Positions 41,164 through 42,342 of a stretch of 64,000 bases of DNA are shown one piece after another. This stretch comes from an uncultured Alphaproteobacteria bacterium (lineage in GTDB: Bacteria > Pseudomonadota > Alphaproteobacteria > RF32 > CAG-239). The DNA is taken from positions 30,218-94,217 of the forward strand of contig CAKQRZ010000006.1 of the NCBI GenBank assembly GCA_934271715.1. The letters run 5' to 3'. The notes below the pieces were generated by a model. It was not told where the DNA came from, made no database searches, and saw nothing but the letters and a program-made list of their open reading frames with translations. Within the stretch, counting starts at the first letter, position 1; every line of letters begins with the position of its first letter. A program made the position numbers and the translations under genes.

Positions 41164-41224
41164 AAATCTAGTAAACAACTTAATTTAAGAGGAAAGAAAG
41201 ATGAAAAATAAGCTATTCAAAGGT

Positions 41225-41238
41225 CTCTCTCTCTCTCT
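41225..41238 (+). repeat. (CT)7 dinucleotide tract in the 5' coding leader of P4
   Basis: Counted directly. Confidence 0.95.
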
Positions 41239-41460
41239 GCAAATCCTGAACATCTGATTATAGGCGCTTTTTCTGCCGTTCAGCACGTTTTTGCAGGGTT
41301 TGGCAGAAAAAATGATACTTTCGGTAATAACGCATTAAGAACAAAACTAGAAGGCGGCACGTTTCCGCGCTTTTCCAGCACCAATTTCAACGTCATTCTT
41401 CGCCGGTACTCCCTGCTGGAAGTACCATGGCGGAGAATCCATAACGTCATTGCTAAAGCA

Positions 41461-42342
41461 ATGTCAATATGCGTTGCCGTTGGCAACAAAGTCAGGGATA
41501 CTCGTCTGCCACAGCCTGCGGGGTGTGGCGACAAGTATGACGTTTCTAGTTTGTGTTCTAGATTGCTTCGTCGTTGCACTCCTCGCAATGACGGTACAAG
41601 TAACGGCGAGGGATTGCACCGCCCTTGTTGCAACAAGATTCTAGGCACAGACTGTGCGTCACGGCCTAGTATGACTGGTGCTAGAGGCGCAAACATGCTA
41701 GGTCGGTCTATGATAGAAATGCTCGGAGTCCTTGCCATTATCGGCGTATTATCAGTCGGTGGGATTGCAGGTTATAGCAAAGCCATGGAGCAGTTTAGAA
41801 TTAACAAAGCCATAAGCGAATACAGCATGCTTATTTTCGGAATGCTGGAGCATTTAGACGATTTTAAGAAAACCACTACCGGCATGACTGAAAACGCCGA
41901 AGTTTTTACGGTTGCAGAATCTCTTAGTTTAGTTCCGCAAAGCTGGAATAAAATCAACAACCTGCAATATGAAGACTCTTTCGGCAATATGATTCAGCTC
42001 TGGATTTTGAAAAACTATCAAGCTGCCGAAGGAGCCACGGTTTTAACCTTTGATTTTTACTTAGGCGGTGTTACCAAAGTCAGCGACTCTCAAAACATTT
42101 CTGCCAATTTTTCCGCCAAGCTCTGCACGGAAATATATCAAAAAATAGCTATTCCCCTGCATGCGGCGGCGTGGAACGCAAATCTTTATAAATCCGGCGG
42201 AGACGGAATATTTGTTTCCGGCGACAGACTTTGCGACGGTTCGGAAAAATGCTTAAGCAATATTTCGCTGGCAGAAGTTCACAGCATTTGCGAGGCCTGC
42301 GCCCGCAGCAGCGAAGTCTGCGCCATTGCCATGCATTTTTAA
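41461..42342 (+). CDS. type IV pilin/pseudopilin-like protein, paralog P4 (frame is open upstream to the CT tract)
   Basis: ...ANMLG then RSMIEMLGVLAIIGVLSVGGIAGYSKAMEQFR. C-terminal C-x5-C-x12-C-x2-C-x6-C. The true start is uncertain. Confidence 0.7.
   Translation: MSICVAVGNKVRDTRLPQPAGCGDKYDVSSLCSRLLRRCTPRNDGTSNGEGLHRPCCNKILGTDCASRPSMTGARGANMLGRSMIEMLGVLAIIGVLSVGGIAGYSKAMEQFRINKAISEYSMLIFGMLEHLDDFKKTTTGMTENAEVFTVAESLSLVPQSWNKINNLQYEDSFGNMIQLWILKNYQAAEGATVLTFDFYLGGVTKVSDSQNISANFSAKLCTEIYQKIAIPLHAAAWNANLYKSGGDGIFVSGDRLCDGSEKCLSNISLAEVHSICEACARSSEVCAIAMHF

Follow-up and report, generated by a model that had tools for sequence, protein, structure and literature searches.

The P4 locus lies in a 64,000-nucleotide (nt) stretch of contig CAKQRZ010000006.1, from an uncultured alphaproteobacterium of the RF32 lineage; this whole stretch is referred to here as the window. 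The locus comprises a gene for a pilin-like protein, a long stop-free reading frame 5' of it and, further 5', a conserved cassette containing a promoter, a Shine-Dalgarno (SD) sequence, an ATG and a CT dinucleotide repeat tract, (CT)n (Table 1). The start codon of P4 was assigned to the ATG at 41201-41203 of the forward strand, which is followed by T(CT)7 at 41224-41238, (CT)7 itself occupying 41225-41238. The repeat tract starts 24 nt past the ATG, 5' of the codons for the functional part of the protein, and was perfect in all of the approximately 60 cassette copies examined. The flank at 41103-41200 was repeated 5' of nearly all cassette copies with 75-93% identity, and over the final 12 nt before the cassette ATG, 11 positions showed no variation and one displayed a diversity of 0.07 (28 distinct upstream sequences).

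Translation in all frames placed the cassette ATG in frame with the pilin at n = 6, 9 and 12 (ON), while translation from this ATG stopped after 18 codons at n = 7, as in the window, and after 16 codons at n = 8 (OFF). In the 154 codons of 41239-41700 the two alternative forward frames contained 6 and 13 stops and the pilin frame none, and the pilin frame continued open through Gly(-1) at 41701-41703 to the stop codon at 42340-42342. Only 35 of 20000 dinucleotide-preserving shuffles of the P4 leader stretch were open, and chance is excluded as the origin of the open leader frame. The pre-sequence of the ON form of P4 counts 12 + 154 + 1 = 167 amino acids (aa). Gene callers start P4 at the ATG at 41461 (P0121, 293 aa), which is preceded by cattgctaaagca, with no GGAG-like motif. 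The first-pass annotation of this DNA had given the ATG at 41201 and (CT)7 at 41225-41238, and both coordinates were borne out; it had read the pilin frame as open from 41239 to G|RSMIEML, which agrees with the absence of stops and with RSMIEML beginning at 41704. Its proposal that 6 or 9 repeats would bring the ATG into frame was confirmed by frame translation, its estimate of a leader of about 170 aa is close to the number counted, and its remark that the annotated ATG at 41461 has no SD sequence holds for the upstream bases given above.

Tract length was found to differ between orthologous loci. A protein search with the ON form of P4 retrieved P0074, a full-length ON protein of 370 aa with the N-terminus MKNKLSKGLSLSANPKHL, encoded by a P4 ortholog with T(CT)6 on contig L051, where the gene order of the window is conserved (589-aa gene, pilin, MerR, flavodoxin, PMT_2). 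The first-pass annotation had made the reading frame depend on tract length, and this reading is supported by the difference between CT7 in the window and in contig L058 and CT6 in L051. Likewise, a search with the hypothetical ON protein of the locus at 33847 returned P0001 and P0003 (280 aa, 95-99% identical, MKNKLFKGLSLSANPKHL, that is CT6) and P0002 with GLSLSLSANPKHL, that is CT9, the latter also being the state of contig L052. The ortholog of the locus at 52927 on contig L053 is CT6 and ON; it was 99.78% identical to the window over 5811 nt, with 9 mismatches and a single gap, which was the tract (CT8 in the window). Each of the three window loci was thus ON in some other sample, and a CT12 ON allele was found at a related locus (P0126). 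Cassettes without a pilin body also differed in n, with CT7 in L008 and L027, CT6 in P0234 and CT9 in P0239, which argues that the tract variation is mutational. A protein search with the leader alone returned 8 short or orphan proteins and was informative only on this variation in n among orphan cassettes. Switching of the tract within a clone is presumed to be fast and reversible, and we consider it likely that P4 is a translationally phase-variable pilin-like gene with a conserved cassette and a disposable modular linker.

The orphan cassettes themselves (L008:5664, minus strand; L027:5684, plus strand; proteins P0233, P0234 and P0239) have the promoter, ATG, (CT)n and a module-bearing leader, followed by unrelated sequence.

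The cassette is not confined to P4. The 23-nt head ATGAAAAATAAGCTATTCAAAGG was present in exactly three copies in the window, at 33847, 41201 and 52927, against 0.01 expected, so that the earlier report of the same ATG-(CT)7 cassette at another locus stands; runs of CTCTCTCTCT occurred in the window at these three sites only, against 0.02 expected. Downstream of the cassette, each of the three has an open frame that runs on to G|RSMIEML, and all three are OFF. A 30-nt extended head was then used as a DNA pattern to scan two public collections, independently of gene calling. It was found in 27 stretches of species-representative genomes, from three metagenome-assembled genomes (MAGs), nearly all of the genome copies coming from one Hadza-gut MAG named 'uncultured Alphaproteobacteria bacterium', CAKQDU01 (approximately 28 copies), while two related MAGs contributed a few. 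It was also found in 23 metagenome contigs, many ending inside the cassette. Among complete tracts, those cut by a contig end being left out, 7 were CT6, 40 were CT7 and 8 were CT8; CT7 predominated (approximately 70%) and approximately 85% of all copies were out of frame.

The frame census was limited to 43 independently sampled loci for which 700 nt or more of downstream sequence was available, and leader statistics to the 41 complete leaders. The frame was open from the tract to the pilin motif in 40 of the 43 loci, the three exceptions being two orphan cassettes lacking a pilin body and one leader with a 1-nt frameshift. Leaders were 52-173 codons long, and 18 of the 41 were expanded to at least 94 codons. 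Across all 41, which together comprise 3471 codons, not one stop interrupted the frame in use, whereas the other frames contained 187 and 275; when only unique codon contexts were counted, the figures were 0/1563 against 75/1533 and 131/1541. Stop avoidance within the 31 codons shared by all leaders was underpowered as a test (2.2 stops expected, P(0) = 0.11), and the whole-leader and module counts were therefore used instead. P4 probably belongs to a set of approximately 30 independently switchable loci per genome, most of which would be OFF in any consensus assembly.

In the frameshifted leader (L038:1979, minus strand), a 1-nt deletion in the leader hairpin element moves the pilin to another frame relative to the tract, and would therefore alter which repeat numbers are ON.

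The differences in tract length could be envisaged as an artefact of assembly or sequencing, or the frame as being restored, with the DNA unchanged, through slippage on the CU repeat during translation or transcription. All of the data are indeed short-read metagenome assemblies, and many contigs end in the cassette; in L032, L040, L041, L043, L044, L047, L048 and others the contig breaks off inside the cassette or a few dozen bases away from it. Such breaks are, however, anticipated for a sequence of approximately 280 bp that recurs approximately 30 times per genome, and cassette loci are often fragmented or mis-joined in assemblies. The differences are always of whole CT units (6, 7, 8, 9 and 12), a 14-nt repeat is well inside the accuracy of Illumina sequencing, and an independent Hadza contig, L058, was identical to the window over 3840 nt, CT7 included. 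An assembly artefact is unlikely. As for slippage, no precedent is known for efficient -2/+1 recoding on (CU)7, and the chance that artefact or recoding accounts for the variation is very slight.

A second alternative is that the OFF loci are silent or decaying copies, either pseudogenes or gene-conversion donors like Neisseria pilS, and that the P4 leader is junk from selfish palindromic elements which plays no part in expression. All three window copies are OFF, and so is the large majority of copies elsewhere; orphan cassettes and a frameshifted leader do occur, the concerted evolution of the 5' cassette indicates frequent gene conversion, and leaders and bodies reassort among strains. In contrast, each locus is equipped with a promoter, SD and ATG of its own, no copy has an interrupted tract, all three window loci are ON in another sample, and the bodies are under purifying selection, with diversity at codon positions 1 and 2 well under that at position 3. 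Decay, moreover, would not preserve leaders devoid of stops across 3471 codons. We therefore regard silent copies as a very unlikely explanation and retain phase variation of functional genes as the preferred one.

The sequence evolution of the leader differed from that of the protein which follows it. In the first 31 leader codons (38 distinct sequences), diversity was flat across the three codon positions (0.139/0.184/0.125), whereas the first 30 mature codons gave 0.124/0.083/0.454, a classic coding pattern. In the short-leader loci a block of low diversity extends from approximately -80 through the leader to the cleavage site, and third-position diversity rises from approximately 0-0.1 to 0.25-0.6 exactly at the mature N-terminus. 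This profile indicates that the cassette, from promoter through SD, ATG and (CT)n to linker, undergoes concerted evolution as a unit of its own, apart from the pilin bodies. Judged from these alignments, the leader peptide is without visible amino acid constraint, and only the openness of its frame appears to be maintained. The first-pass annotation had spoken of a leader; since there is no third-position excess, the segment is not protein-like in its evolution, and a presumably translated spacer, rather than a functional leader peptide, is the better description.

All 41 leaders have a net charge of +4 to +26 (P4, +15) and no hydrophobic run longer than 5 residues, and in the AlphaFold model of P0074 the leader had a predicted local distance difference test (pLDDT) score below 50, against 85-97 for the body. 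Given the lack of amino acid constraint, the basic charge and the modelled disorder, the leader is probably a translated, disposable and disordered linker. Searches of the leader against Pfam and NCBIfam gave no significant match (best NCBIfam E = 0.12, below the cut-off), and a function at the protein level was rejected on the lack of a family match, the lack of a codon-position signature and the disorder in the model. A conserved RNA structure of the leader was also rejected, as RNAalifold on 40 leaders gave -1.8 kcal/mol; pair counts for an imperfect palindrome at columns 30-40 / 63-73 showed no covariation above shuffles, and Rfam gave no match in 40850-41760 at gathering and E-value thresholds.

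Compared with leaders of 54-56 codons, that of P4 contains three inserted blocks, A1, A2 and B, flanking the hairpin element at 41560-41592. Their lengths of 135, 93 and 108 nt are all multiples of three and they are open in the frame used, which for B is the only one of the three forward frames that is open; the ATG at 41461 chosen by gene callers sits just 5' of A2. At 48-54%, the GC content of the blocks exceeds that of the window (42%), and strong hairpins form in each of them on folding. The hairpin-forming repeat modules of the first-pass annotation were recovered in folding of the whole P4 leader, which gave a string of local hairpins with z = -4.57, none of 100 shuffles folding equally well. 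Across the 64-kb window, together with 411 kb of related loci, modules were seen only in the 5' pre-sequence regions of genes for pilin-like and secreted proteins. They occur in both orientations, module B being inverted yet in frame in the leaders of L017 and L024. Inspection of module boundaries in the alignments revealed no terminal inverted repeats or target-site duplications, although no formal search was made. In databases, relatives have pre-sequences of up to approximately 270 aa.

The module content of the P4 locus itself varies among strains, always in frame. In L051 another module stands last in place of B, L057 (CT7) has a different module set with B replaced, and in L054 a second, repeat-less leader type, MFKGIEFFKGKSRG..., is fused into A1. 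Across samples, the P4 body (82-98% identical, flanked by MerR and flavodoxin) was found with four leader architectures, and in L057 the upstream neighbour is a 289-aa gene rather than the 589-aa gene. This variety in leader architecture and upstream neighbour indicates frequent recombination of the 5' region.

In a third alternative, translation starts constitutively at an internal codon near the cleavage site and the upstream ATG-(CT)n open reading frame (ORF) is a small regulatory upstream ORF or leader peptide. In P4 the start would be the ATG at 41695, 7 nt behind AGAGG, giving MLG|RSMIEML; in short-leader loci it would be the TTG of '...SG-LLRVARND...' behind AAAGG, and AAAGGA/AAAGAG does lie 7 nt 5' of this TTG at 52927 and 33847. 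Gene callers choose such starts (P0004, P0005), and the commonest state, CT7, is OFF. However, the ATG at 41695 is missing from L051 and L057, where the P4 locus has other modules, the best SD and promoter are located at the cassette ATG, and we know of no prepilin leader resembling one of three uncharged residues. An internal start would also leave unexplained the 52-173 stop-free, in-frame codons of 40 of the 43 loci and the insertion of modules only in their open frame. It is thus a rather unlikely explanation, and initiation at the cassette ATG, switched by the tract, is preferred.

The mature protein begins with G|RSMIEMLGVLAIIGVLSVGGIAGY, where Gly(-1), Glu(+5) and the approximately 20 residues of a hydrophobic helix fall in columns that are invariant in 30 relatives. 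Its AlphaFold model (pLDDT 86, predicted template modelling score 0.82) starts with a long helix, behind which lies an alpha/beta domain containing conserved Cys, and one relative, P0044, is named 'type II secretion system protein' by NCBI. No match to the P4 protein was found in Pfam. The gene at 15221-15934, earlier taken for a prepilin peptidase, matched Peptidase_A24 with E = 1.1e-16, and its product may remove the long leader after Gly(-1).

On the reading preferred here, the 5' cassette of approximately 280 bp would give the gene its only good start signal, in the order promoter, SD, ATG AAA AAT AAG CTA TTC AAA GG, (CT)n and linker, with (CT)n placed between the cassette ATG and a class III (prepilin-type) signal sequence. 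Slipped-strand mispairing would alter n in whole CT units; values divisible by three (6, 9, 12) would link the ATG to the pilin frame, while at n = 7 the ribosome would halt after 18 codons, leaving the gene OFF. The stretch from the tract to Gly(-1) would have to be translated through and would hence be kept stop-free and in frame. Being basic, non-hydrophobic and predicted to be disordered, the leader would remain cytoplasmic, and cleavage after Gly(-1) by the A24 prepilin peptidase, a step that is presumed, would remove it along with its variable Leu-Ser repeat. A disposable linker of this kind would tolerate the insertion and exchange of GC-rich palindromic modules provided that they are in frame and stop-free, and P4 would have accumulated A1, A2 and B to reach a pre-sequence of approximately 167 aa.

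Several observations weigh against this reading. All of the tract variation observed is between assemblies, and selection for the OFF form, or for the 18-aa peptide itself, could underlie the predominance of CT7. The AGAGG before the ATG at 41695 could give a constitutive MLG|RSMIEML. Known prepilin leaders are basic and approximately 5-30 aa long, and the 167-aa leader of P4 is well beyond that range. The TIGR02532 prepilin hidden Markov model (HMM) gave 12.9 bits (E = 0.078), under its cut-off of 16.3, and Foldseek searches of the Protein Data Bank (PDB) with the full-length and mature models returned no solved pilin and no significant match, the best being to Cas7 proteins (E = 0.02, TM 0.23). 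With the HMM below its cut-off and no pilin matched in the PDB, the name 'pilin' rests on the N-terminal motif, and 'pilin-like' is therefore used.

Table 1. Coordinates of the P4 locus and related features in the window.
Feature	Coordinates	Strand	Description
Promoter	41134..41163	+	Sigma-70-like TTGACT-18-TAGAAT, 10/12 matches; belongs to the conserved 5' cassette
SD region	41187..41196	+	AAGAGGAAAG, GAGG 8 nt 5' of the ATG; sequence reading
Cassette head	41201..41223	+	Start codon and conserved 23 nt, encodes MKNKLFKG; identical at 33847 and 52927
OFF-state product	41201..41257	+	18-codon ORF MKNKLFKGLSLSLQILNI, TGA stop at 41255-41257; frame translation
T(CT)7 tract	41224..41238	+	Putative frame switch, OFF here, ON at n = 6, 9, 12; ortholog L051 is T(CT)6
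First 31 leader codons	41239..41331	+	ANPEHLIIGAFSAVQHVFAGFGRKNDTFGNN, common to all cassette loci; alignment A1
Module A1	41332..41466	+	135 nt, 48% GC, two strong hairpins; 1/3 forward frames open, the frame used; also in leaders of L034, L029, P0074, P0126, P0134, P0136, P0142
Module A2	41467..41559	+	93 nt, ICVAVGNKVRDTRLPQPAGCGDKYDV..., hairpins GTTGCC/GGCAAC and GCCACA/TGTGGC; in frame in P0017, P0018, L034
Hairpin element	41560..41592	+	GATTGCTTCGTCGTTGCACTCCTCGCAATGAC (RLLRRCTPRND), present in short-leader loci too; copies at 34003-34040, 32258-32290 and in most leaders
Module B	41593..41700	+	108 nt, ...NKILGTDCASRPSMTGARGANML, internal SD-like AGAGG then ATG 41695; second copy at 40794-40843
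Gly(-1) and mature pilin-like protein	41701..42342	+	RSMIEMLGVLAIIGVLSVGGIAGY..., Glu +5, Cys-rich C-terminus, stop at 42340-42342; G-R-S-M-I-E-M-L invariant in alignment A2
Sister locus	33847..34691	+	Same cassette, CT7 OFF, 56-codon leader; ON alleles P0001, P0003 (CT6), P0002/L052 (CT9)
Sister locus	52927..53737	+	Same cassette, CT8 OFF, 54-codon leader; ON allele L053 (CT6)
Paralog	12460..13113	+	Canonical 8-aa leader MYKNFEKG|RSMIEML, no repeat tract; fixes the cleavage-site position
Candidate prepilin peptidase	15221..15934	-	Peptidase_A24, E = 1.1e-16

Elsewhere in the window, a type 2 5' cassette without a repeat tract, AGGAG(A/G)AATAAG-ATG followed by MLKSIEFLRGKSRG.../MLESMNFLRGKNRG..., was found at 31584-32342 and 39140-40909, both on the minus strand. 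It heads a pilin-like gene and a non-pilin, Cys-rich, secreted-looking protein of 589 aa, in which an ordinary signal peptide, LALLAFLCLFTTAAEA, comes after approximately 45 residues derived from modules. In its first codons, the type 2 cassette is similar to the DNA that makes up the -10 and SD in the (CT)n cassette (TATAGAAT...TTAAGAGGAAAGA). Between the divergent type 2 gene and P4, a perfect 22-nt inverted repeat, ATGTGTAAAAAAAACGACCGTT, at 40925-40946 / 41081-41102, surrounds 134 bp, and is also present at approximately 32355-32535. An invertible promoter was considered here and rejected: in all 12 loci compared, the enclosed segment was oriented alike with respect to both flanks, and there is thus no evidence of inversion. 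The repeat may instead be an operator pair. A Fic-domain gene (32606-33748, minus strand) lies directly upstream of, and divergent from, the pilin locus at 33847, an arrangement kept in L052, and a 6S RNA was identified at 38839-38995 on the plus strand (Rfam RF00013, 58.6 bits). The paralog at 12460-13113 lies downstream of tRNA-His (12065-12141) and of a stretch of approximately 230 nt, 12213-12440, that ends in a terminator-like hairpin and gave only sub-threshold matches in Rfam.

A wider and decidedly tentative proposal, which we think somewhat improbable as it stands, is that the expression cassette is self-homogenising and that its linker is a landing and recombination zone for pilin-specific palindromic modules. 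These would act as joints that reassort cassettes, phase-variable type 1 and non-variable type 2, with approximately 30 pilin bodies; with switching at simple sequence repeats this would provide a gut commensal with combinatorial control of its pilus surface, and the pre-sequences would be by far the longest class III signal peptides (up to approximately 270 aa) on which a prepilin peptidase acts.

Contingency-locus phase variation has been described mainly in small-genome pathogens. Here it would act on approximately 30 pilin-like genes of an uncultured alphaproteobacterium of the human (Hadza) gut, and surface variation of this lineage is directly testable from existing metagenome reads. If the leader is cleaved, prepilin peptidases would accept pre-sequences 5-10 times longer than any known, and such leaders could be unconstrained linkers which absorb selfish palindromic DNA. 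Cassette genes are also systematically mis-annotated, with internal ATG or TTG starts or wrong-frame extensions, and their ON/OFF state is consequently invisible in current catalogues.

The closest parallel to the switch is found in Helicobacter pylori, where sabA, babB and hopZ are grouped with oipA as CT-repeat genes. In oipA, CT repeats in the signal-peptide coding region switch the gene ON and OFF (PMC10564699). P4 shares with oipA the CT unit, its position after the start codon and ahead of the site at which a removable signal is cleaved, ON/OFF control by frame and, as presumed for P4, the discarding of the variable peptide. The carrier in oipA, however, is the Sec signal peptide of an outer-membrane protein, and in P4 it is the prepilin-type (class III) pre-sequence of a pilin-like protein; moreover, the P4 family has 52-173 more translated codons between tract and cleavage site, and approximately 30 paralogs of the P4 type share one homogenised cassette of promoter, ATG, tract and linker. 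In the opa genes of Neisseria, the repeats are located in the leader-peptide coding region. They are CTCTT pentamers near the 5' end, at approximately 11 independently switching loci (PMC3745409, PMC13183285). The opa and P4 families are both multi-locus families of surface proteins with a conserved 5' region, in which each locus has its own coding repeat 5' of the mature N-terminus and switches independently, as is presumed for P4, most being OFF at a given time. In contrast to the P4 family, opa has a pentamer repeat, an outer-membrane beta-barrel product and a short ordinary signal peptide, and lacks modular insertions.

Among pilins, the type IVb members TcpA, CofA and BfpA have 'long' leaders, of approximately 13-30 aa. 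P4 resembles them in its basic leader ending in Gly(-1), in the hydrophobic helix with Glu(+5) and in the presence of an A24 peptidase gene. Its family differs in having leaders 5-10 times longer (66-69 aa in the basic form, approximately 167 in P4 and up to approximately 270 in relatives) that are unconstrained in sequence and contain a frame switch, and in that the pilin HMM and fold searches recognised no pilin. The modules, in turn, recall Rickettsia palindromic elements (RPEs) and intragenic miniature inverted-repeat transposable elements, palindromic repeats of approximately 100-150 bp which lie in frame in coding genes, where they are translatable and are tolerated in protein regions in which function is left undisturbed (PMC10969869). 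Like RPEs, the P4 modules are short, repeated, hairpin-forming, in frame and stop-free within coding sequence; unlike them, they were seen only in 5' pre-sequence regions, in both orientations, and are swapped among strains at a single locus. A literature search found nothing on RSMIEML proteins, on RF32 pilins or on slipped-strand pilins with dinucleotide repeats. The switch mechanism is thus of a known kind, that of oipA and opa, and what is new is its carrier, a family of approximately 30 pilin-like genes with a homogenised cassette and with pre-sequences that are built of exchangeable modules and range from 66 to over 170 residues.

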